From the NCBI GenBank assembly GCA_951813565.1, contig OX638351.1:480001-544000 (forward strand): a stretch of 64,000 nt of DNA, given 5' to 3'. Shown here one piece after another: positions 4,875-20,885 of the stretch. This stretch comes from an uncultured Poribacteria bacterium (GTDB taxonomy: Bacteria; Poribacteria; WGA-4E; WGA-3G). The notes below the pieces were generated by a model, which was given only the letters and a program-made list of their open reading frames with translations, ran no database searches and had not been told where the DNA came from. The position numbers and the translations under genes were made by a program. Position 1 is the stretch's first letter. Every line of letters starts with the position of its first letter.

Positions 4875-6030
4875 ATACCATATTAATATGATTGTTCTTG
4901 CATTTATTTTTTGGATGTGTTATTGTGATCAGATGAAAAATAAAAAACATGGGGTTTCCCCTCACTTTTCAGTAGAAGTTCTGAAACAAAGGTATCTTGA
5001 ATGTGAATGTCCTATTGAACGGACGCACTGGCATATTATTTGGCTTCTTGCTGATACCACACATCCGCGAACACCTCGCGAAGTTGCTGAGATTGTAGGA
5101 TGCACGCCGGACTGGGTTCGGAAGTTGCTCAAACGCTACAACGCTGAAGGCGAAGCAGCTATGCGAGACAAACGCAAAAACAATGGACGCAAGCGTATTT
5201 TGGATGAAACACAGCAAGCAGCCCTTGAAGCTGCACTTTCTTCGCCTCCTGCTGATGGCGGTCTGTGGACAGGTCCGAAGGTGGCTGCGTGGATATCCGA
5301 GACACTCAAGCGTCCTGTCAGTAATGTGTCAGGTTGGAAATATCTCAAGCGTCTCGGTTATACTTTACAAACACCTCGTCCTCAACATCAGTCAGCTGCA
5401 ACACCAGATGAGCAGCAAGCATTAAAAAAAAAAACTTAGGGAGCGGGTAGCTGAGCTTGAAGGTCAGCACCCGGAGAAATCGGTAGAAGTCTGGGCAGAA
5501 GACGAGGCACGCGTGGGATTATTGCCGGCTCATCGGCGTGTCTGGGCGAAGCAAGGTGAAAGACCGACAGCCTCGGTGTGTCCGTCATATAAATGGCTTT
5601 ATGGTTTCGGTTTTGTCCGTCCACAGACGGGTGAGACCTATTGGCTTCTGATGCCGAGTGTGAGTGTTGAAGTGATGAACCTTGCGTTGGCAGAGTTTGC
5701 TCGGGATGTAAACCCGGAAGGCAAGAAACAGATAATCCTCTTATTAGATCGTGCCGGTTTTCACACGGGTAAGGATTTAGATGTCCCACAAGGTATTGAG
5801 TTATTTTTTTTACCGCCGTATACACCGGAACTTCAACCTGCCGAACGGCTGTGGCCTCTGTTGCGAGAGGTGGTTGCCAATAAAGTTTTTAGAACGCTAT
5901 CAGACCTTGAAGAAGTGCTTGTGAAAAGGTGTCAGTGGTTTTCCAAAAACAAAAAGAAGGTACAAGAACATGTCGGTTTTCAGTGGATTTGCAAAATGGA
6001 AAACACAATATGACTCTCGTTAATTTGGTA
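4875..6030 (+). mobile_element. IS630-family insertion sequence
   Basis: Flanked by TA (4873-74, 6031-32); imperfect IRs ataccatattaa / ttaatttggta; removing it plus one TA restores the IS1634 frame. Confidence 0.88.
4933..6013 (+). CDS. IS630 transposase: HTH orfA (4933-5439) and DDE orfB joined across an A11 tract (5424-5434)
   Basis: orfA winged HTH (WTGPKVAAWI, LKRLGYTLQTPRP); orfB WAEDEAR, LDRAGFH, LPPYTPELQPAERLW. Confidence 0.88.
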
Positions 6031-7235
6031 TAATGTGGAACAGAGATGATGGTGGCACAAGGTTGATGATACTTCCACGATTTGGATATATCTGCCACAG
6101 CGGCTTCAGCAGCTGAATAGGTGTCAAACGTTTTATGCTGCAATCGCTTGAAGGATGTCTCGGCAACCCCCTGTGCTTTGGCAATCTTTTTTTCCAAAGT
6201 CGCCACTTCACGATGGGACGCTGCATCGGAATAAACAACTAACCACCTTTGAGGAACACCGCCATAGGTGCTATCAACCGAAAGATAGCGATACCCATCA
6301 AGTAGTGCCGGCTGCATCGCTTCAGTGGAGATAGTTTGATAGAGGGCTTTGACAGCTTTGATCGTCTCAGGCACACGCGTAATAAAACGCACATCACAGA
6401 GCGTCGTAATGTTATGGGCGGTATAGAGCGCACTATCCGCTACAAAATAAGGCGGTTCACTGCCACGCAGTTGCGCCAGATATGCGCGGATCGTGTCTGG
6501 GAAACTTGTTTTATCAGCCTTATTTCCATCAAGTGCTTTGAACTATACCGGGAACTGAGACCGATAAGAACAAATGAGTTGGACAACCACCTGTTTGAGG
6601 TCCGGACGCTGATCCCGACTATATCCGTGGGTGATGTGAATGGCGTGTTCATCGTCCGTTTCGGTATCATAGTCTCCATGCAAACTAAACGTGCTACTAT
6701 CCAGATGGACAAAACGATGGGCTATGTCAAATGTTGATAATGCCTTGGACGCAACTATCGCAAAAAGTTCGGTAACTCCGTTTTCATAAAGAGTATCTAA
6801 AGCACGCCCAAGACTATCGTCCGAAAAATCGGCAGCACAGCGGTGAGACCGGACCAACAAGTCCACGGGTTTATTTGAAAAAAACTCAGGTGTCAAGTAG
6901 AGAGGGCGTGAGACAAAGCCTAAAGCATTCAAGACCATTGCCATCACAGCTTCACCCACTGAGACTTTCCGTTTCGTTAGACCAATAAAGGTATCAATCG
7001 TGTCAATCAAGTCAATACGATCACATACACCAGCAACAATGCCAAGATGATCTAAGCGTAGGGTTGTAAAAGTAGGTTCAGTTATGGTATCATCTCCTAT
7101 TATTCAAGATATAACAGTATAACATAAATACTTAAAATCTGATTTAACAACTGCGGAATGTAGGCTATTTCATTTCAAAAGAGACAATAACTCATAGAAT
7201 TGGTATTACTCCACTTTTCCACCTTACAGATAATG

Positions 7236-7393: not shown

Positions 7394-8245
7394 CTATCTT
7401 GCTGATTTAAGTTTACCCCAGGTGGTAGTCGTTTTACCTGCTGCATCAACTGCAAAAACACCTTCAATTCCATTGCGGAGTGACTTAACTTCATCCTCGG
7501 AAAGTGGCACATTAAAGATGACAATTTCGTCAATGATACCACTCCAATGACACCTTCCGTTAGGTTCATTACATCCCGCATCTGCACCGATGTAAACCGC
7601 TTCAAAAGAATCCCAAGGTTGTCCTACTGCGTCTGCACTGCCCTGTAGTTCACCATTAACGTAGATATGGATTTTCGTTCCATCCCATACACCCACAAGA
7701 TGAACCCACTCATTTTCGGGAAGTGGTTCACCGAGTGCTTCAAATCTCTCCGGCGCGCTCCTCGTCCGAAAATGAAACGAAGCTTGGTCAATTTTCCCAC
7801 CGACATTTTCATGGGCACCGGTTCCAAGTAGATACTGGGACCAACTTGAACAACCTTTTCCTTTCCATATAACACATTTGCCATTGGGTGGTGCTGTTGC
7901 AAATACCCATGCATGGATCGAGAAACCTTTGGAGTCCTTAAAATTCAAGGCTGCCAAAGTAGCTGGTTCACCTTCCTTCCCAATACGAACATAGTTTTGT
8001 GCCACTTCACCGCTAAATTCTATTCCACCGCCGAATTTGGCATCTACCCATTTGATATCACCAACAAATTCACCATCGCTACCTTTTCCAGAAAGATCTT
8101 TAACGGTTTTGCCTTTACCTTCTTCAAAGGTCCACATTCCTTGAATTGTGTTTTTACCGAATCTTGCATCAGACACATTTACATACCACATAGCAGTAAG
8201 TAATGAACTGATAATACAGATCACTTTTATATTTTTGGAAAACAT
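7394..8245 (-). CDS. Secreted LamG/concanavalin-like domain protein
   Basis: Signal peptide; WTFEEGKGKTVKDLSG, WVHLVGVWDG, IDEIVIFN; C-terminal AVDAAGKTTTTWGKLK. Confidence 0.88.
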   Translation of the reverse strand: MFSKNIKVICIISSLLTAMWYVNVSDARFGKNTIQGMWTFEEGKGKTVKDLSGKGSDGEFVGDIKWVDAKFGGGIEFSGEVAQNYVRIGKEGEPATLAALNFKDSKGFSIHAWVFATAPPNGKCVIWKGKGCSSWSQYLLGTGAHENVGGKIDQASFHFRTRSAPERFEALGEPLPENEWVHLVGVWDGTKIHIYVNGELQGSADAVGQPWDSFEAVYIGADAGCNEPNGRCHWSGIIDEIVIFNVPLSEDEVKSLRNGIEGVFAVDAAGKTTTTWGKLKSAR

Positions 8246-8400
8246 TTTATTCCTCCTTTATTCTGAAACCCATCAAGATTTACATATCCATCAGTAAGAC
8301 ACCCTATTAAAATTAGGTTCGGGTAACCAGATGGATACGGGCAAAATTGCCTATTAAGGAGATCGCGACTATAAGGACACCAGCCATTTTTAGTAACATA

Positions 8401-8559
8401 ACGTGAGTTTGATAAATAGTTAGGATTTCTACATTTCCTCTTAAAGTCCTCTGATAAGGGGGATTTAGGGGTTAAAAACACCAAAATAACGATTTTTTCA
8501 GCAAATATGCCCGTTCTCTGTTCAATTTTTGCCTGTCCAGTTAATTATCAAACTCACGT
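8401..8559. mobile_element. IS982-derived MITE (159 bp)
   Basis: IRs acgtgagtttgataa / ttatcaaactcacgt identical to the IS982 at 31575; 7-bp direct repeat taacata (8394-8400, 8560-8566). Confidence 0.9.
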
Positions 8560-8730
8560 TAACATAATCACATTTATAAAATTTGTCAAGAATTTGTTTT
8601 AAGATAGTTTTCTTTACAGCAAGTATGACATCACTACATCTCAGTAGTAATATGGAAGATAAATAAAAATGCGATGTCCACTTTTCGTTCATAGACATCG
8701 CACTTCATAGTATAAGATAGCAAGTTATTT

Positions 8731-8863
8731 TATAGTAGATTTTAGAATTACTTGCACACTTTTGAACTGTAGGAGGGAACTCCGATTCCCGACATTCGCA
8801 AAGGTCTCGATTCGGAGATCGCTCCTACAAAAGACGTGTAAACTTATTTTATATTCTACTATA
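8731..8863. repeat. MITE-like inverted-repeat element enclosing a GTAG-type REP doublet
   Basis: Ends tatagtag / ctactata; internal gtaggagggaactccgattcccga ... tcggagatcgctcctac, also found at 53776-53833; related ends at about 7294 and 59844. Confidence 0.7.
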
Positions 8864-8873
8864 AAATATAATC

Positions 8874-9736
8874 CTATTTAGCAGATTTAAATTTACCCCA
8901 GGTGGTAGTGGTTTTACCTGCTGTATCAACAGAAGTTAAAACTCCTTCAATACCATCAGCGAGTGACTTAACTTCACCCTCGGAAAGTGGCACATTAAAG
9001 ATGACAATTTCGTCGATGATACCACTCCAATGACACCTGCCCTTGCCAGCATTACAACCTGCATCTGCACCGATGTAAACCGCTTCAGGAGAGTCCCAAG
9101 GTTGTCCTACTGCGTCTGTGCTGTTCTGTAATTCACCATTAACGTAGACATGGATTTTTGTTCCATCCCAAACACCAACAAGGTGAACCCACTCATTTTC
9201 GGGAAGTGGGTCTCCAAGTGCTTCAAATTTATCAGGGGAACTCCTTGTCCGAAAATGAAACGAAGCTTGGTTAACTCTCCCACCGGGATTTTCATGTGCC
9301 CCGGTTCCGAGTAGATACTGTGACCAGCTTGAACATCCAAGCCCTTTCCATATAACACATTTTCCATTGGGTGGTGCCGTTGCAAATACCCATGCATGGA
9401 TCGAGAAACCTTGGCGTCCTTAAAATTTAAGGCTGCCAAACTATCGGAATCGCCTTTCGTACCGATACGAACATAGTTTTGTGCCTCAACACCGCTGAGT
9501 TCTATTCCGCCACCGAATTTGGCTTTTGCCCATTTGACATCACCAACAAATTCGCCGTCGCTACCGTTTTCGGAAAGATCTGTAACGGTTTTACCTTCAC
9601 CTTCTTCAAAGGTCCACATTCCTTGAATTGTGTTTTCATCAAATTTCGCTTCGCCTGTCTCTATCATCGCGAAACTGAGCACGATAATAGCAAGTGTAGT
9701 CAGCATGTAATTCAGATACCGTTTTGTCAAAAACAT
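8874..9736 (-). pseudogene. LamG protein, tandem paralogue of 7394..8245, with a 1-bp frameshift
   Basis: Colinear with the neighbour; agaaacc-tt-ggc at about 9411 versus agaaacc-ttt-gga in the intact copy; the shifted frame ends SVDTAGKTTTTWGKFKSAK*. Confidence 0.85.
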
Positions 9737-9745
9737 GTTTCCTCC

Positions 9746-9993
9746 GGGTGTGTAAAGTTTTTGTAGAAATCCGCACAACTCCTATTGTAGGGGCGGGTCC
9801 CCGTGCCTGCCCGTTGCATAGCACGTCCTGCGCAGTGGCGGGGCACCAAATCAAGAAATCAACGGTATGAATAACATTTAGTTATTCACCGGGTATGAAT
9901 GCCTTTTGGCATTCACCGGGACCCCGCCCTACAGTGGGAAACGCCGCGTAATCATTGCAAATTGAACCTATGTAACCAAATATTTACACACCC
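9746..9993. mobile_element. MITE with gggtgtgtaaa/tttacacaccc ends (IS256-like termini), carrying a REP doublet
   Basis: Near-identical copy at 47325-47687; lies directly against the RBS of the 8874..9736 gene; no target duplication at this copy. Confidence 0.8.
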
Positions 9994-12708: not shown

Positions 12709-15700
12709 CTACTGATTCGCTTGGACAATTTCCGCTTGTGTTTTACCAAAATAGGAGGCTACCTGAACAAGGTCAAGAATATTCACCTGTCCATCCATGT
12801 TCACATCGCCAGCGAGTCCTACGCCAGATTCACCAAATTGATTGGCAACCTGAACCAAATCCAAGACATTTACCGTGCCATCAGCATTGAGATCCCAGGG
12901 CACAGGGGCTATCGTAGTTTTGGTACTGATTTCAGCAGTTTTTGTGCTATCTCCTTGCGAAGTTGCCGTAACTTTGATTTCATATTCACCCGGTTTTGTG
13001 AAGAAATCACCTGCTGTGGTAAATGTAACATCAGTAGATGCGCCAGGGGCAAGCATAATCTCTAACTGACTTGTGGGAAATTCTTGATCGCTTGATGTTG
13101 TGAACGATCCTAAGACGCTACCTTCAATCCCGACCTCTGCTGAAGAGCCAAGCATTATCGTATCATCTGTATTGCCGGTGTTTGTGACAGTGAGTGTATA
13201 GCTGACACCTGCAACCATATCCATCGTTGCCCCTTTGAGTTCACCTTCACCTACTAATGTAACGCCGTAAACAGGCAGAATAGTTGTCGTTGTTGAAACC
13301 TCTGCAGTTTCTGAATTATCGCCTTGCGAGGTGGCAGTAACCTTGACTTCGTAAGCACCTGCTTTTGCAAGAACATCAGCGGAAATAGACAACGTCACTT
13401 CTGTTGAAGCGCCAGAAGCAAGCGATACTGAGGATTCACTTAACGTAGCAGTAGCATCACCCGATGTTGCTAAATCTATGACATCATTCGTGTTACCGGT
13501 GTTCGTAATTGTAAGTGTATAACTCACACCTTCAGTTGCATCTGCTGTTTCAGTTGTCAACTCACCTACAGCTGCCAACGTGACATCATAGACTGGTAGA
13601 ATAGTTGTAGTCGTTGAAACCTCTGCAGTTTCTGAATTATCGCCTTGCGAGGTGGCAGTAACCTTGACTTCGTAATCTCCGGCAGTTGCGAGCGCATCAG
13701 CGGAAATAGACAATGTCACTTCTGTTGAAGCGCCAGAAGCAAGTGATACTGAGGACTCACTTAACATAGCAGTAGCATCCCCCGTTATTGCTAAATCTAT
13801 GACATCATCCGTGTTACCGGCATTCGTAATTGTGAGTGTATAACTCACACCTTCCGCTGCGTTTGCTGTTTCGGTTATCAAATCGCCTACAGCTGCCAAC
13901 GTGACATCATAAACAGGCAGAATAGTTGTAGTGGTTGCTACTTCAGCAGATTTCGTGTTGTCACCTTGTGAAGTCGCTGTAACTTTGATTTTATACTCAC
14001 CTGATTTTGTAAGGAGATCGCCTGTTGCTGTAAATATAACTTCGGTAGAAGCACCAGGAGCAAGTGTGATCTTCAACTGGCTGGTTGAAAGTTCTTGATC
14101 TTTAGATTTTCTGAACGAGCCGAGAACGCTCCCTCCAATTCCAACCTCCGCAGAAGAACCGAGAATAATCGTATCATCTGTATTGCCGGTGTTTGTGACA
14201 GTGAGTGTATAGCTGACACCTGCAACCATATCCATCGTTGCCCCTTTGAGTTCACCTTCACCTACTAATGTAACGCCGTAAACAGGCAGAATAGTTGTCG
14301 TTGTTGAAACCTCTGCAGTTTCTGAATTATCGCCTTGCGAGGTGGCAGTAACCTTGACTTCGTAAGCACCTGCTTTTGCAAGCGCATCAGCGGAAATAGT
14401 CAATGTCACTTCAGCAGAAGCACCAGTGGCAAGCGATACAAATGTCTGACTCAAGGAGGCATCATCGTCTGATGTTGCTAAATCTATGACATCATCCGTG
14501 TTACCGGTGTTTGTGATTGTGAGTGTATAACTCACACCTTCAGTTGCATCTGCTGTTTCAGTTGTCAACTCACCTACAGCTGCCAACGTGACATCATAGA
14601 CTGGTAGAATAGTTGTAGTCGTTGAAACCTCTGCAGTTTCTGAATTATCGCCTTGCGAGGTGGCAGTAACCTTGACTTCGTAATCTCCGGCAGTTGCGAG
14701 CGCATCAGCGGAAATAGACAATGTCACTTCTGTTGAAGCGCCAGAAGCAAGTGATACTGAGGACTCACTTAACATAGCAGTAGCATCCCCCGTTATTGCT
14801 AAATCTATGACATCATCCGTGTTACCGGCATTCGTAATTGTGAGTGTATAACTCACACCTTCCGCTGCGTTTGCTGTTTCGGTTATCAAATCGCCTACAG
14901 CTGCCAACGTGACATCATAAACAGGCAGAATAGTTGTAGTGGTTGCTACTTCAGCAGATTTCGTGTTGTCACCTTGTGAAATCGCTGTAACTTTGATTTT
15001 ATACTCACCTGATTTTGTAAGAAGATCGCCCGTTGCTGTAAATATAACTTCGGTAGAAGCACCAGGAGCAAGTGTAATCTTCAACTGGCTGGTTGAAAGT
15101 TCTTGATCTTTAGATTTTCTGAACGAGCCGAGAACGCTCCCTCCAATTCCAACCTCTGCCGAAGAGCTAAGCACTATTGTATCATCTGTATTGCCGATGT
15201 TTGTGACTCGTAGGGCATAACTGACACCCGCGTTCGCAAATTTGGTTTGCTTTGTTAGGTTGTCACCTGCCAACGTAACACCATAAACAGGCAGAATAGT
15301 GGTAGTCGTTGAAACCTCTGCTGTTTTTGTGCTATCCCCTTGTGATGTTGCTGTAACCTTTACTTCATAATCCCCCGCAGTCACAAGTGAATCACCGGAA
15401 ATAGTCAATGTCACTTCAGTAGAAGCACCCGATGTAAGCGATACAAATGTCTGACTCAAGGTGGCATCATCGTCTGATGTTGCTAAATCTATGATATCAT
15501 CCGTGTTACCGGTGTTTGTGATTGTGAGTGTATAACTCACACCTTCACTTGCATCTGCTGTTTCGGTTGTCAAATCACCTACACCTACTAACGCGACACC
15601 GTAAACAGGCAAAATAGTTGTAGTGGTTGCTACTTCAGCAGATTTCGTGTTGTCACCTTGTGAAGTCGCTGTAACTTTAACTACATACTCGCCTGCTGTT

Positions 15701-17763
15701 GCTAAAGCAGTGCCAGGAATTGCCAAAGTTACGTTTGTAGAAGCACCCGATGTAAGCGATACAAATGTCTGACTCAAGGAAGCATCATCGTCTGATGTTG
15801 CTAAATCTATGACATCATCCGTGTTACCGGTGTTTGTGATTGTGAGTGTATAACTGATGCCTTCACTTGCATCTGCTGTTTCAGTTGTCAAATCACCTAC
15901 ACCTGCCAACGTGACATCATAGACTGGTAGAATAGTTGTAGTGGTTGCTACTTCAGCGGATTTCGTGCTGTCACCTTGTGAGGTAGCCGTAACTTTAACT
16001 ACATACTCGCTTGCTGTTGCTAAAGCAGTGCCAGGAATTGCCAAAGTTACGTTTGTAGAAGCACCCGATGCAAGCGATACAAATGTCTGACTCAAGGTGG
16101 CATCATCGTCTGATGTTGCTAAATCTATGACATCATCCGTGTTACCGGTGTTTGTGATTGTGAGTGTATAGCTGATGCCTTCACTTGCATCTGCTGTTTC
16201 AGTTTCCAATTCGCCTACGCCTACTAACGTGACACCGTAAACCGGCAAAATAGTCGTAGTCGTTGAGACCTCTGCTGTTTTTGTGTTATCTCCTTGCGAA
16301 GTTGCTGTAACTTTCACAGCATAATCACCAGCAGTTTCTAACGCAGTACCAGGAATTGACACTGACACTGTTGAAGAAGCACCAGGGGCAAGGGATATCA
16401 CGGTCCGACTTACTGTAGCAGTGGCATCACCTGACGTTGCTAAACGGATCGTATCATTTGTGTTGGCAGTATTTGTTACGCGGAGTGTATAACTGACACC
16501 TTCACTTGCATCTGCTGTTTCGGTTGTCAAGTTGCCAACTCCAGCCAACGTAACGCCGTAAACAGGAAGGATAGTTGTAGTCGTTGATATCGCTGCGGTT
16601 TTTGTAGTATTTCCCTGTGAGGTGGCAGTGACTTTCACCGCATAATCACCCGCTTTAGCAAGGGAAGCACCAGAAACTCTTAACGTCACTGTGCGTGAAG
16701 CACCCTGGTTAAGGAATACAGAAGTCGGACTTACTGTAGCAGTGGCATCACCTGACGTTGCTAAACGGATCGTATCATTTGTGTTGGCGGTATTTGTTAC
16801 GCGGAGTGTATAACTGACACCTGCGCTTGCATCCGTTGTTTCCTTTGTTAAGTTGCCTATACCCACCAACGTAACGCCGTAAATTGGCAGCATAGTTGTC
16901 GTTGTGGTGATTTCAGCAGTTTTTGTGCTATCTCCTTGCGAAGTTGCTGTAACTTTCACCGCGTAATTACCTGCAGTTGTTAAAGCACTTCCAGGAATCG
17001 TTAAAGTTACGTTCGTAGAAGCACCCGCTGCAAGTGATATGGAGGTTCGACTTAGCGTTGCATTCACACTGCCTGATGATGACAAACGAATCACATCATC
17101 TGTGTTACCGGTGTTTGTTACCCGAAGTGTATAAGTAACACCGGTGCTCGCGTCCGCTGTACTTTTAGCCAAATTACCTACACCTGTTAACGTAACGCCG
17201 TAAACGGGTGGGACATCTGATGTTGCTTCTTCAGTATAGATATAATCACCTGCAGCGCTAAAATCGGCATTGGCGGCGTTTCCCGCTGCATAGAACGTAA
17301 TCGGTCCAACATCGGTAGATGGGGCAGTCCATTTAAATGTCCAACTGTTGGCATCTTTTTTACCAGTTGCAGTGCCAGCAAAAGTATGTTTAATGTATTG
17401 TTTACTGTTTTCTTCTGATAACTGCGTATTTCCATCCCTGGGGGCAAAGGTGCCAGCGCGTGCACCATTACCGTTCAGCGCGGTCATCTCAAATCCCCAT
17501 TTACTTTGTCCCGTTCGAGATAAATTGATAGCAATATCGTATACCTCACCCGGTAAATAGTTTTCAGGCACTGTCAACATCAGTGAACCACCCGCAGCGT
17601 CCAGAGCGTTGCCTGCGTGGCATTGCATACAATTGTTTTCACTGGGTGCTCCAGTTAATCCATTTGGTGGACCACCAGAAAAAGCAAATACATTACTGTT
17701 GCTGGCAACAAAAAGAAGCAGAAGCACTGCAGAAATAGAAAAAATCTTTTTCATATAATTCAA
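12709..17763 (-). CDS. Large secreted protein: Reeler-like (choice-of-anchor V type) domain with CxxCH, 13 tandem Ig-like repeats, C-terminal dockerin
   Basis: Signal peptide; GLTGAPSENNCMQCH, WTFKWTAPS..GPITFYAAG; 13 units starting PVY(G/D)VTL; duplicated EF-hand dockerin DLNADGTVNVLDL / DVNMDGQVNILDL; start TTG 17763 or ATG 17754. Confidence 0.85.
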   Translation of the reverse strand: MNYMKKIFSISAVLLLLFVASNSNVFAFSGGPPNGLTGAPSENNCMQCHAGNALDAAGGSLMLTVPENYLPGEVYDIAINLSRTGQSKWGFEMTALNGNGARAGTFAPRDGNTQLSEENSKQYIKHTFAGTATGKKDANSWTFKWTAPSTDVGPITFYAAGNAANADFSAAGDYIYTEEATSDVPPVYGVTLTGVGNLAKSTADASTGVTYTLRVTNTGNTDDVIRLSSSGSVNATLSRTSISLAAGASTNVTLTIPGSALTTAGNYAVKVTATSQGDSTKTAEITTTTTMLPIYGVTLVGIGNLTKETTDASAGVSYTLRVTNTANTNDTIRLATSGDATATVSPTSVFLNQGASRTVTLRVSGASLAKAGDYAVKVTATSQGNTTKTAAISTTTTILPVYGVTLAGVGNLTTETADASEGVSYTLRVTNTANTNDTIRLATSGDATATVSRTVISLAPGASSTVSVSIPGTALETAGDYAVKVTATSQGDNTKTAEVSTTTTILPVYGVTLVGVGELETETADASEGISYTLTITNTGNTDDVIDLATSDDDATLSQTFVSLASGASTNVTLAIPGTALATASEYVVKVTATSQGDSTKSAEVATTTTILPVYDVTLAGVGDLTTETADASEGISYTLTITNTGNTDDVIDLATSDDDASLSQTFVSLTSGASTNVTLAIPGTALATAGEYVVKVTATSQGDNTKSAEVATTTTILPVYGVALVGVGDLTTETADASEGVSYTLTITNTGNTDDIIDLATSDDDATLSQTFVSLTSGASTEVTLTISGDSLVTAGDYEVKVTATSQGDSTKTAEVSTTTTILPVYGVTLAGDNLTKQTKFANAGVSYALRVTNIGNTDDTIVLSSSAEVGIGGSVLGSFRKSKDQELSTSQLKITLAPGASTEVIFTATGDLLTKSGEYKIKVTAISQGDNTKSAEVATTTTILPVYDVTLAAVGDLITETANAAEGVSYTLTITNAGNTDDVIDLAITGDATAMLSESSVSLASGASTEVTLSISADALATAGDYEVKVTATSQGDNSETAEVSTTTTILPVYDVTLAAVGELTTETADATEGVSYTLTITNTGNTDDVIDLATSDDDASLSQTFVSLATGASAEVTLTISADALAKAGAYEVKVTATSQGDNSETAEVSTTTTILPVYGVTLVGEGELKGATMDMVAGVSYTLTVTNTGNTDDTIILGSSAEVGIGGSVLGSFRKSKDQELSTSQLKITLAPGASTEVIFTATGDLLTKSGEYKIKVTATSQGDNTKSAEVATTTTILPVYDVTLAAVGDLITETANAAEGVSYTLTITNAGNTDDVIDLAITGDATAMLSESSVSLASGASTEVTLSISADALATAGDYEVKVTATSQGDNSETAEVSTTTTILPVYDVTLAAVGELTTETADATEGVSYTLTITNTGNTNDVIDLATSGDATATLSESSVSLASGASTEVTLSISADVLAKAGAYEVKVTATSQGDNSETAEVSTTTTILPVYGVTLVGEGELKGATMDMVAGVSYTLTVTNTGNTDDTIMLGSSAEVGIEGSVLGSFTTSSDQEFPTSQLEIMLAPGASTDVTFTTAGDFFTKPGEYEIKVTATSQGDSTKTAEISTKTTIAPVPWDLNADGTVNVLDLVQVANQFGESGVGLAGDVNMDGQVNILDLVQVASYFGKTQAEIVQANQ

Positions 17764-17786
17764 AAAGCCTCCTTCACATATACGCG

Positions 17787-17858
17787 AAAAAACGCCCCAC
17801 CGCCGACGCTAATCAGGATTGATTCGCGGTCGGATAAACCGGCAGTCGGGGCGTCTTT
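17787..17858 (-). terminator. GC-rich intergenic stem-loop with U-tail on minus strand
   Basis: Minus strand acgccccga...ggggcgtttttt. Confidence 0.65.
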
Positions 17859-17882
17859 GTTATTGCGTTTTAGTTGCGAAAC

Positions 17883-20666
17883 CTACTTGAGGATAACCAT
17901 CTTACGGGTAGCAGTGAAATTCGCTGTCTGGAGTGAATAGAAATAGATACCACTCGCAACAGGTTCACCCGTGTTGTTTTTACCATCCCAATAGGCAGCA
18001 CTTGAGGTTGTCATGTACGAACCAACTGACTTATGTCCTAAATCCAGCGTCCGCACCAAACTACCAGAGGCACCAAAAATCTGAATCATTACGTTGGAAT
18101 CACGACTCAGTTGATAAGGTATCCAAGTTTCTGGGTTGAAGGGGTTCGGGAAGTTTTGTCCCAGAATTGTTTCCTTAGGACGCACATCGCCAACTCGCAT
18201 CTGCACACTTAGGTATGCGTTGTTAATATCCGAAGTTTGGACTGTGCGTTGGAATGGACCGGACACAACCGTGCCATTTTCGTCAATGAGTGCGATCTCA
18301 ACTTTATCGCCAGCTTCAACGACGTCTTTACGATTCAAGTCTGCCCATACAGCAGAGACGCGTTCGTTGTCGCTATCGACTTTTTGTGTTGCCACAACGC
18401 CTGTGCGGAGGTTTTTGGCAACCACAGTGTAAGACGCACCAGCTTGCATGTCTTGCAAACCGCTTGTAACGACAAACGCCCAAGCACCTTTAGAAGTGGA
18501 AAGTTTCGGTGCAGCCGCTGCTTCTTCCGCAGCCATTTCCATTTCTGCATCCATTTCCATTTCTGCTGGTGGATTTGCCCATGCTGTACCACTGAACGTT
18601 ACCGTTCCACCTGCAGGTGTATTGACGATATATCCTTTTCCACCTTCAATACCGAAATCATAGCCACCTTCAACACCAGCAACATATCCTACAAACTCTT
18701 GTGTCGCTGCATTAAGTTTGATAACAACTGTTGAACTTAACATATCAGCAAGAGATTGCGCAGTATAAGGTTCTGTTGGCATCAGTGGGACAGAAATCAT
18801 GTTCAATCCCGCTGCAAGTGTGACATCGTATGTAGGAAGAGGTGGTGGAGGCACAACGGGTTCTGGTTCCGGTTCTGGGACATAAGGTGCAACCGTTAGC
18901 ATTGCTGTCGGTTCTGTCCAAGCAAAATCTTCACCTACCTGACCAACACCAAGGATACCAGGGTGCGGTGTGATTACGCCACCTTCTGTGGGAACACGAT
19001 TATTCAAATCATCAAGATCACCCACATAGGCTGGACCGGGAATATCGGATGCGCGCTCAGTATTTTGCTCACTACCTGCATCATAAGCCGTCAAATTCAG
19101 CGTTGTTGAAATGGGCATACCGGCTTCATCAAAGAGGGCTAAGTCTGCAACTCCAACAAATGCGTCATTTGTTGAGACTAACATTGTCGCGAGGGAGAGC
19201 GAAGAGTTCATCGCATCGGCTGTCAGTACTACGGAAACAGATCCACCGGGGACAACAAACCCTTCTTGGGGTTTTAGAGCTTCAACGTTTGCGCCTGCAA
19301 CGGTTGCGAGTGCGGCGAGTCCTGAGCTATCTCCATTTTCAGCAAGGAGGACAAGCGCCTGACTGGCAGGTTTACCGACTTCGTAGACTTCGATAATACC
19401 AGCAGTGTGTGTTGCAAAGATCGGTGGTGAGAAGATTTGTCCACCCATACCCGGTTCACCAGTGGTGAGGTTAGTCAGGGTAATCTTGAACATTGTGCTT
19501 TCGGGAACAACGGTATCGGTGTCTGTATCAGTATCGGTATCAGTATCCGTGTCTGTATCGGTATCAGTATCGGTGTCTGTATCAGTATCGGTGTCTGTAT
19601 CAGTATCGGTGTCTGTATCAGTATCGGTATCGGTATCTGTATCAGTATCCGTGTCTGTATCGGTATCGGTGTCTGTATCGGTATCGGTGTCTGTATCAGT
19701 ATCCGTGTCTGTATCAGTATCGGTATCGGTATCGGTGTCTGTATCAGTATCGGTATCTGTATCAGTATCCGTGTCTGTATCAGTATCGGTGTCTGTATCA
19801 GTATCGGTATCGGTGTCTGTATCAGTATCGGTATCGGTGTCTGTATCAGTATCTGTATCAGTATCCGTGTCTGTATCAGTATCGGTGTCTGTATCAGTAT
19901 CCGTGTCTGTATCAGTATCGGTGTCTGTATCAGTATCCGTGTCTGTATCAGTATCGGTATCGGTGTCTGTATCAGTATCCGTGTCTGTATCAGTATCGGT
20001 ATCGGTGTCTGTATCAGTATCGGTGTCTGTATCAGTATCCGTGTCTGTATCGGTGTCTGTATCAGTATCCGTGTCTGTATCGGTATCAGTATCGGTGTCT
20101 GTATCAGTATCGGTGTCTGTATCAGTATCGGTGTCTGTATCGGTATCAGTATCTTCTTCCGCAGTGGGAACAGTAACCGAACCGTCTGCGGATGTGACTT
20201 CCAACTCTGTACCAATGGCATCAGAAATAAGAACATCTGTCAAGGTAATAGCGGACGCTTTTACCTCAACGACTTCAAATGTTACAGTAGCAAGCGTGCC
20301 ATCACCATCCACAGGAACCACCGGGTTGAAGGTAGTTGCTCCGATCGTAACACGGTCACCTGAAGCAGCTGGTGTAACTACAGGAAGGATAGTCGTGCCT
20401 GCTGTGGGTAGGTAGCTAGCGTTCGCAGCAGAAACATAACTGAGCGCAGTTGAATCAAAATTTACGTCTACTTGGTAACCGGCAACACCTGCGCCTCCAG
20501 CGATATTAATATTTACTGTGAGTTGTTCCCCGACTGCCGGGGATTCAATTGTAGCGGGATCAACAGAAACGGTAGCTGCACCGTAACTCATCGCAGTCCA
20601 TCCCAAACACATTACAACAGCCATCAAGGAAAGAAACATTTTCCTGTTAAAAAGCTGATTATTCAT
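17883..20666 (-). CDS. Secreted protein: cohesin domain, (DT)107 tract, Spondin_N domain, C-terminal FlgD-Ig/secretion-tail-like domain
   Basis: Cohesin-like VAGYQVDVNFDSTALSY and GDGTLATVTFEV; spondin-like FSPPIFATH, LAENGD, SLATMLVSTNDAFVG, AYDAGSEQN; tail QNFPNPFNPETWIPY...WDGKN..GEPVASGIYFY. Confidence 0.85.
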   Translation of the reverse strand: MNNQLFNRKMFLSLMAVVMCLGWTAMSYGAATVSVDPATIESPAVGEQLTVNINIAGGAGVAGYQVDVNFDSTALSYVSAANASYLPTAGTTILPVVTPAASGDRVTIGATTFNPVVPVDGDGTLATVTFEVVEVKASAITLTDVLISDAIGTELEVTSADGSVTVPTAEEDTDTDTDTDTDTDTDTDTDTDTDTDTDTDTDTDTDTDTDTDTDTDTDTDTDTDTDTDTDTDTDTDTDTDTDTDTDTDTDTDTDTDTDTDTDTDTDTDTDTDTDTDTDTDTDTDTDTDTDTDTDTDTDTDTDTDTDTDTDTDTDTDTDTDTDTDTDTDTDTDTDTDTDTDTDTDTDTDTDTDTDTDTDTDTDTDTDTDTDTDTDTDTDTDTDTDTVVPESTMFKITLTNLTTGEPGMGGQIFSPPIFATHTAGIIEVYEVGKPASQALVLLAENGDSSGLAALATVAGANVEALKPQEGFVVPGGSVSVVLTADAMNSSLSLATMLVSTNDAFVGVADLALFDEAGMPISTTLNLTAYDAGSEQNTERASDIPGPAYVGDLDDLNNRVPTEGGVITPHPGILGVGQVGEDFAWTEPTAMLTVAPYVPEPEPEPVVPPPPLPTYDVTLAAGLNMISVPLMPTEPYTAQSLADMLSSTVVIKLNAATQEFVGYVAGVEGGYDFGIEGGKGYIVNTPAGGTVTFSGTAWANPPAEMEMDAEMEMAAEEAAAAPKLSTSKGAWAFVVTSGLQDMQAGASYTVVAKNLRTGVVATQKVDSDNERVSAVWADLNRKDVVEAGDKVEIALIDENGTVVSGPFQRTVQTSDINNAYLSVQMRVGDVRPKETILGQNFPNPFNPETWIPYQLSRDSNVMIQIFGASGSLVRTLDLGHKSVGSYMTTSSAAYWDGKNNTGEPVASGIYFYSLQTANFTATRKMVILK
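19512..20153 (-). repeat. Coding tandem repeat: 107 Asp-Thr dipeptides, dominant 18-bp unit GATACTGATACAGACAC(C/G)
   Basis: 642 bp of GAYACN hexamers read directly. Confidence 0.97.
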
Positions 20667-20856
20667 ATAAACACTCCTTACAAAATTTGTTTACTATATT
20701 GTGACGTTCTCTCTACCTTTCGGCAAAGGTTTAATTTATCGTTTGAGGAGAGGGTTTATTGGAAACCTAAGGGGCATAATTGATATCTAACGTACCGCCA
20801 CTATATGCACAAAGGCGAATCGCTCAAACGTAGTTATATACTTAACAGATAAGTTT

Positions 20857-20885
20857 ATTCTAACTTAAAAACGTTGTCAAGTCAA
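20857..20885 (-). promoter_or_regulatory. Sigma70-type promoter for the cohesin/spondin gene
   Basis: TTGACT-17 bp-TAGAAT on minus strand, about 190 bp upstream of ATG 20666. Confidence 0.6.

Follow-up and report, generated by a model that had tools for sequence, protein, structure and literature searches.

In animals, a single F-spondin chain carries a Reeler and a Spondin_N domain, with thrombospondin repeats (TSRs) after them, and the haem of cytochrome f has the protein's N-terminal amino group as its sixth ligand. The available portion of one study (PMC3117680) ascribes three disulfides and two conserved motifs to the FS domain of F-spondin and leaves 'to be explored' whether the FS domain acts in synergy with the Reeler domain; that portion thus provides no evidence of a Reeler–Spondin interface to mimic. 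The available portion of a second study (PMC7908018) describes a beta-sheet fold and an iron-coordinating Tyr in cytochrome f, and gives the CXXCH motif as the only feature shared with cytochrome c1. Here we analyse two neighbouring genes, B and A, that combine relatives of these domains with a cohesin and a dockerin in a 64,000-nucleotide stretch of DNA (hereafter the window; forward-strand positions 480,001–544,000 of contig OX638351.1, assembly GCA_951813565.1) from an uncultured Poribacteria bacterium (WGA-4E; WGA-3G). The pair is a real, lineage-specific and conserved two-gene module and a new form of non-cellulosomal cohesin–dockerin display. We judge the chances to be about even that it specifies a docked, stalked c-type haem protein, with a predicted cytochrome-f-like head, on a non-cellulosomal scaffold. 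Literature searches, for which subscription journals were mostly outside reach and supplements were excluded, returned no published description of the pair.

Both open reading frames lie on the minus strand in the transcription order B, then A, at the place given in the initial annotation, which had called them adjacent, co-oriented genes for secreted proteins. Gene B (17883–20666) encodes a secreted scaffold of 927 amino acids that consists, in order, of a signal peptide, a cohesin, a (DT)107 linker, a Spondin_N domain, two small beta domains (M1 and M2) and a tail of the type IX secretion system (T9SS) type. Gene A (12709–17754) encodes a secreted stalk protein of 1681 amino acids from its ATG, or 1684 from an alternative TTG start at 17763, with a signal peptide, a Reeler-like head, 13 immunoglobulin-like (Ig) repeats and a dockerin, and without a T9SS-like tail. 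This composition, with the CMQCH motif in the head and exactly 107 DT pairs in the linker, confirms the domains named in the initial annotation. The profile hidden Markov models proposed as a check (Reeler, Spond_N, Cohesin and Dockerin) all gave matches: in A, PF02014 with 25.8 bits (cut-off 21) and PF00404 with 32.9 bits (cut-off 22.9); in B, PF00963 with 41.2 bits (cut-off 24.1, in a six-frame search of the genome; the cohesin was missing from the domains listed by a Pfam scan of the whole protein) and PF06468 with 37.4 bits. The tail of B matches TIGR04183 with 28.7 bits (cut-off 23).

We searched 151 genomes of the phylum by profile for the head and for the Spondin domain. The head is present in 97 of the 99 genomes of the window's family and in 2/4 of one other family, and absent from two more (0/10 and 0/26). 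The Spondin domain occurs in 90/99 genomes of the window's family and in 3/10 and 18/26 genomes of the two head-less families. At least 80 of 100 head matches have a co-oriented Spondin match no more than 6 kb upstream (37/37 in the window's own genus, 43/63 elsewhere), a lower bound given that many of the remaining matches sit at contig ends and that 14 Spondin matches stand outside those listed. The adjacency is far beyond chance. Eighty of the 100 head loci, selected in part to stay clear of contig ends, were then fetched and annotated with purpose-built profiles; removal of four at contig ends and one from another family left 75 informative loci. All 75 have a gene of the form cohesin...M1–M2–tail upstream of A, either directly or one paralogue away, which bears out the expectation that the neighbourhood would be conserved. 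The upstream gene carries a Spondin domain in 72 of them; in the other three (L092, L097 and L098) the Spondin domain is absent and the cohesin is kept. It is thus the cohesin scaffold, and not the Spondin domain as such, that is conserved with A. A dockerin ends A in 77/79 family proteins, the other two running off their contigs, and a tail is absent from all of them. The placement of a free cohesin on B and a terminal dockerin on a tail-less A is fixed. A is single-copy in nearly all genomes. In the locus from the other family (L091), the head has its own dockerin and tail and there is no B upstream. Among B-type loci of the two head-less families, 12/14 read cohesin–Spondin–M1–M2–tail, and B appears to be older than the B–A pair.

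This DNA is associated with sponges. Two sponge metagenomes from two studies carry 88–89% of sampled words of this DNA, in agreement with the sponge origin suggested at the outset, and a sponge-metagenome contig crosses the B–A junction with 13 differences. Of 29 related loci, 26 are labelled Candidatus Poribacteria and 2 uncultured bacterium, and 1 is a weak match from Myxococcales. Two contig sets that are RNA or possibly RNA, in small share, touch short pieces of B only and cannot show transcription or co-transcription.

The 156-residue head of A (17215–17682) follows a signal peptide (17683–17754, read from the sequence) with a V-F-A cleavage-type site at its end, and mature A likely starts at Phe25. 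It belongs to the choice-of-anchor V/Reeler-like family (NF041895, 113 bits, cut-off 42; PF02014 matches 62/70 members at E ≤ 10) and is related in sequence to the Reeler domain of F-spondin, which its profile reaches at E 3.5e-5. What the initial annotation missed is the best reading of the head, namely a c-type haem domain whose predicted fold is like that of cytochrome f. The CMQCH sequence (17617–17631) is a haem-c attachment-type motif in the homologue alignment, in which Cys-Cys-His is kept in 81/81 members, spaced as CX2CH in 47 and as CX4CH in 34; both spacings are known in haem-c proteins. Across 141 distant relatives, the two Cys and the His are 99–100% conserved, a second His is found in 83% and a nearby Met in only 11%, which ruled out Met/His axial ligation through a conserved Met. 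The CXnCH motif lies in an exported domain, and the genome encodes CcmE and CcmF/C-family proteins of the cytochrome c maturation (Ccm) system.

The predicted fold is consistent with this assignment. With the AlphaFold model of the head (predicted local distance difference test score 93.8) as query, an exhaustive structure aligner returned cytochrome f as the best match (Z 11.3, root-mean-square deviation 3.0, 139 residues aligned, model residues 1–156 on chain residues 1–244), with a second cytochrome f chain at Z 10.8, a cohesin at 9.9 and the F-spondin Reeler at 9.5. Residue 1 superposes on residue 1 of cytochrome f; the cohesin matches begin at residues 23–29. The first Cys stands at mature position 16–21 in 80/81 homologues, and mature residue 1 is Phe or Tyr in 67/80 by a pattern-based count. 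This fixed distance and the superposition of the first residues would fit ligation of the iron by the N-terminus. Where cytochrome f would be expected to continue into a membrane helix and the b6f complex, A runs into Ig repeats and a dockerin.

The head is also widespread, with 7150 clusters at E ≤ 0.001. An ESM Atlas search with it returned only Reeler-labelled or unnamed bacterial clusters. Among 80 metagenome head loci, a script counted 10 with a tail and 7 with a dockerin; outside Poribacteria the head ends in one or the other, as interchangeable anchors. One distant head (1/80 scanned) is fused to a glucose/sorbosone dehydrogenase. V-head genes stand in tandem, up to three, in seven loci of other bacteria (L200, L208, L220, L226, L239, L245 and L250).

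From the architecture, order and conservation of the pair, the invariant Cys-Cys-His and the haem-maturation and T9SS-like genes, all read directly from the DNA, we infer the following route. Signal peptides would take A and B across the inner membrane, and Ccm would, with good probability, attach haem to the CX2CH or CX4CH motif of A. The new N-terminus left by signal cleavage may then provide the iron with its sixth ligand, in the manner of cytochrome f, for which we see slightly better than even chances. The T9SS-type tail would export B and anchor it to the surface, and tail-less A would be anchored on B by its dockerin, a step we consider reasonably probable. Architecture and linkage make it likely that A docks on B, where it would probably compete with other tail-less dockerin proteins. 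The Ig stalk would hold the haem head out from the cell; as the stalk is without cofactors, it cannot serve as a wire, and the most likely role of the head is to shuttle single electrons on its tether, or to make redox contact, with extracellular partners. We give this last step somewhat less than an even chance. If the scheme is true, connectors of the cellulosome type display a redox protein rather than enzymes in an abundant lineage of sponge symbionts, which would hint at extracellular electron exchange in sponge tissue.

Several observations weigh against the docked-haem explanation. The Z margin of cytochrome f over the cohesin and Reeler folds is only 1.4–1.8. Foldseek places the F-spondin Reeler first (E 2.6e-7, TM 0.52), with no cytochrome f among the matches listed, and head profiles (A1 and A5) searched against PDB and Pfam never reached cytochrome f. 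A is a tail-less, folded protein of 170 kDa whose crossing of the outer membrane is unexplained and which could stay periplasmic; for the export of B, a SprA-like match (2167 amino acids) remains below its family cut-off. On the docking side, cohesins occur in 41/41 genomes of the order at 2–32 each, the genome's other dockerins have recognition helices similar to that of A, B with a cohesin exists in families where A is absent, and the most variable part of the cohesin is its middle, which we take to be the place of the binding face.

The docking points belong to the rival explanation that survives best, although we still regard it as unlikely: a general docking network in which B, with its one site, takes any tail-less dockerin protein and A is co-transcribed with it but not dedicated to it, and may equally bind other cohesins. 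The genome has about 27 dockerins, 16 of them on tail-less proteins, and 6 cohesins. Four of these cohesins stand beside a dockerin in the same chain and one is free but tail-less, leaving B as the only free cohesin with a tail, which speaks for docking of A on B. A second type of locus, in which a cohesin/Spondin scaffold stands beside DUF3108-like dockerin genes (L157–L160), and a distribution that puts B before A also fit such a network. Against it stand the single-copy A found beside a cohesin-bearing B in 75/75 loci and the intergenic element that they share. Given the similar recognition helices and the widespread cohesins, A may not be specific for B, and neither of two further analyses bears on this clearly. 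A predicted complex of the B cohesin, the A dockerin and two calcium ions scored 0.10 (mark 0.32) with controls that did not fold, which is evidence neither way; in mirror-tree and partial correlations over 70 paired loci the groups disagree, with 0.06 and 0.37 for cohesin–dockerin and 0.52 and 0.16 for head–Spondin. The network explanation is compatible with a haem head and differs from the docked-haem explanation in specificity only.

Dispensing with haem altogether seems improbable to us. On this account the cysteines form a disulfide, the head is the metal- or glycan-binding Reeler-type tip of an adhesin on a fibrillar stalk, and the dockerin may be just a calcium-binding module for surface retention. 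The homology to Reeler in both sequence and Foldseek comparisons would suit a tip of this kind; fibrillar adhesins typically bear Ig stalks that are long and variable; and the four proteins of the genome with a cohesin and a dockerin adjacent in one chain agree with a retention role. Against this account, the His directly after the second Cys is invariant under both spacings. The match to cytochrome f spans the N-terminal segment from residue 1, unlike the later-starting cohesin matches, and the genome has a Ccm system.

The purpose originally proposed for the pair was that docking would rebuild an F-spondin-like unit, joining the Reeler-like head and the Spondin domain into one adhesin that mimics the host matrix. 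The domains, the adjacency, the placement of cohesin and dockerin and the sponge association on which that proposal was built all stand; the purpose itself is not supported. Both domains are true relatives of the animal ones (Reeler at E 3.5e-5, mindin at E 1e-4), their genes are adjacent in 72/75 loci, the DNA is recovered in sponge metagenomes, and the 1–2 Ig repeats of other genera would make head–Spondin proximity possible. However, the Spondin domain is missing from the upstream cohesin gene in 3/75 loci, two families have B but not A (head in 0/10 and 0/26 genomes), and the domain in B has no cysteines, compared with the three disulfides of the F-spondin FS domain. The lengths of stalk and linker are uncorrelated (Spearman 0.13, p 0.51, n = 28; −0.20 in a second set, n = 42), and some genomes have 15 Ig repeats alongside a B linker of 50 residues, which would fit a head projected from the cell better than one that meets the Spondin domain. 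Head and Spondin lie in separate genes here, neither A nor B has a TSR match, and fusions of the two domains number 0/150 among representatives and 0/80 among metagenome loci. Heads lack a Spondin or cohesin domain in the same chain in the best 150/150 representatives, and no Spondin or cohesin gene was found near the head in 77 metagenome loci that are not Poribacteria-like (about 40 with at least 2.5 kb upstream; Poribacteria-trained profiles), the only two such neighbours among the 80 being in Poribacteria-like loci. We hold the matrix-mimic purpose to be quite unlikely.

Nor does the pair look like a cellulosome: B has one cohesin at all loci, and no enzyme family was found in A or B. The cohesin of B (20166–20579) lies in a dockerin-free chain behind a signal peptide of about residues 1–29 (20580–20666, read from the sequence). 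Its profile matches solved cohesins down to E 1e-13, the nearest being the ScaB cohesins of A. cellulolyticus and the NagJ cohesin of C. perfringens. Its counterpart, the C-terminal dockerin of A (12727–12906), has two intact calcium loops in near-symmetric halves. It consists of two loop–helix repeats in which the Asp/Asn of the calcium loops is invariant in 70/70 sequences, and its best solved relative by profile is the Cel48 dockerin of B. cellulosolvens (2y3n, E 2e-11). Among the dockerins of the genome closest to it is that of a secreted 116-residue protein that is little beyond a dockerin (G000:C1:4948339-4948689). The stalk between head and dockerin (12913–17208) comprises 13 tandem Ig-like repeats of 106–123 residues each; there are 6–24 such repeats in the window's genus and 1–2 in other genera of the family.

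The acidic (DT)107 linker of B (19512–20153) is replaced in orthologues by another acidic low-complexity run or by 1–2 Ig repeats of the A type, at 17–497 residues in the window's genus; in L072, L085, L086 and L090, 1–2 copies of A's Ig repeat take the place of the linker, and modules are thus exchanged between the genes. An identity of B as a microbial surface component recognizing adhesive matrix molecules (Sdr/Clf) was rejected, the matches being due to the DT run alone and far below cut-off. The Spondin_N domain (18879–19502) is of the bacterial type (PF06468; NF038123, 130 bits). Its invariant STND and YDAGSE align to the PSPDW and DAGTD motifs of mindin and F-spondin, and its profile reaches mindin at E 1e-4. 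We consider that it would act as a separate, calcium-dependent surface-binding module of the older scaffold. M1 and M2 are joined by an acidic linker (18177–18833). Fold searches make M2 a generic beta-sandwich, with 8.3 as its best Z, and gave no clear match for M1, which they barely covered.

The C-terminal tail of B (17886–18173), which resembles both T9SS type A and FlgD-Ig domains, is common to about 29 proteins of the genome. A search that covered T9SS genes other than those of the motor found a PorV-like gene above cut-off and three genes for tail-bearing C25 peptidases, which suggests that this Poribacteria genome has a T9SS-like system outside Bacteroidota.

Scaffolds related to B vary elsewhere. 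Four loci (L092, L094, L100 and L108) have extra B paralogues in tandem with B that consist of a signal peptide, an acidic run, M1, M2 and the tail. In L147, L150 and L151, which belong to a family that has no A, the gene after B encodes an M36 metallopeptidase that carries a dockerin, a cohesin and a tail. Scaffolds with a Spondin domain and no cohesin occur in more distant lineages (L141 and L156), with four CHRD domains in L141. The scaffolds of L157–L160 start with a DUF3108-like domain, with or without a cohesin, and continue as Spondin–M1–M2–tail, flanked by the DUF3108-like dockerin genes; the window's own genome has related, Spondin-free genes near C1:1793809-1797002 and C1:3416833-3417633.

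Between B and A lies a structured RNA element (17786–17858, minus strand) with a GC-rich base stem that encloses two small hairpins in a three-way junction and is followed by a U tract. The 131-base spacer folds better than shuffled sequence (z −3.3), as do 30/30 and 42/45 orthologous spacers at z ≤ −2. A strict pattern found the element in 68/80 loci, and variants are visible in 8 of the 12 misses. In 61 aligned copies, 98.7% of cells pair, compared with 25–57% when partners are slid; 2/22 pairs change on both sides, and support from covariation is thin. The element is single-copy in the genome, an Rfam search of the intergenic region returned only chance-level matches, and the element was not among the terminators listed by a consensus scan. 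In a head-less family, a plain hairpin built on the same base stem lies next to B at three loci. We think it likely that the element sets the ratio of A to B, as a stabiliser or a leaky terminator, and that it lets only part of the transcripts continue into A. Similar ratio-setting roles are known in cellulosome operons. In L098, the place of the element upstream of A is taken by a promoter-like sequence; the neighbouring B there is without a Spondin domain.

A broader proposal is that V heads are N-terminus-ligated haem-c proteins that link the cytochrome f of oxygenic photosynthesis and the animal Reeler domain, with Poribacteria adding display on a stalk of adjustable length, docked on a cohesin scaffold that T9SS exports, at a ratio set by the RNA element; we regard it as speculative and rather unlikely as a whole. 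If true, it would make a small, soluble and widespread domain with a cytochrome-f-like fold and Reeler-like sequence available, through which the origin of both could be directly tested.

Upstream of B, two overlapping sigma-70-like promoter candidates (20852–20885, minus strand) match 10/12 positions; matches of this kind are no commoner than in shuffled sequence. On the other side of the pair, the window holds an IS630-like transposase in two frames (4888–7010; frames 4888–5439 and 5513–6013) that overlaps, on the opposite strand, pieces of another transposase that seems to be broken, both labelled from their translations. Two paralogous secreted LamG-type genes follow (7394–9778, minus strand). 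The first matches Laminin_G_3; the second (9107–9778) drops out of frame some 120 residues in, apparently through a frameshift.

Compared with known systems, the closest solved relatives of the docking domains are cellulosomal (A. cellulolyticus ScaB, cohesin E 1e-13; B. cellulosolvens Cel48 dockerin 2y3n, E 2e-11), but here the cohesin is single, neither a cellulose-binding module nor a glycoside hydrolase is present, the host is a diderm and the anchor is T9SS-like. The pair is more like the non-cellulosomal cohesin–dockerin pairs of C. perfringens (NagJ, 2jh2/2ozn, with a hyaluronidase dockerin) and Archaeoglobus fulgidus (2xdh), in which one cohesin and one dockerin sit on separate secreted proteins with no role in cellulose use, and the B cohesin profile reaches NagJ at E 5e-7. 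It differs from them in its cargo, a predicted haem head carried by an Ig stalk, in the T9SS-type tail and the Spondin domain of the scaffold, and in that no enzyme domain is detected in A or B. Relatives of the Reeler-like and Spondin_N domains are found in animal F-spondin (Spondin-1) and mindin (Spondin-2), and both Spondin motifs are kept here; by contrast, the pair has two chains, no thrombospondin repeats, a Spondin domain without disulfides and a haem-type motif in the Reeler-like domain, and either domain can occur without the other. To the soluble domain of cytochrome f (PetA) the head is alike in its predicted beta-sheet c-type haem fold and in a Cys-Cys-His near an aromatic mature N-terminus, whereas it has 156 rather than about 245 residues, 14% identity, no profile match, no transmembrane helix or b6f complex, and CX4CH in 34/81 homologues. 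Finally, as a member of the choice-of-anchor V proteins (NF041895; PF02014), the head of A shares with the others its N-terminal position and swappable C-terminal anchors, and is set apart from them by 1–24 Ig repeats, a dockerin end and a genetic tie to a cohesin scaffold that is seen only in Poribacteria-like loci.

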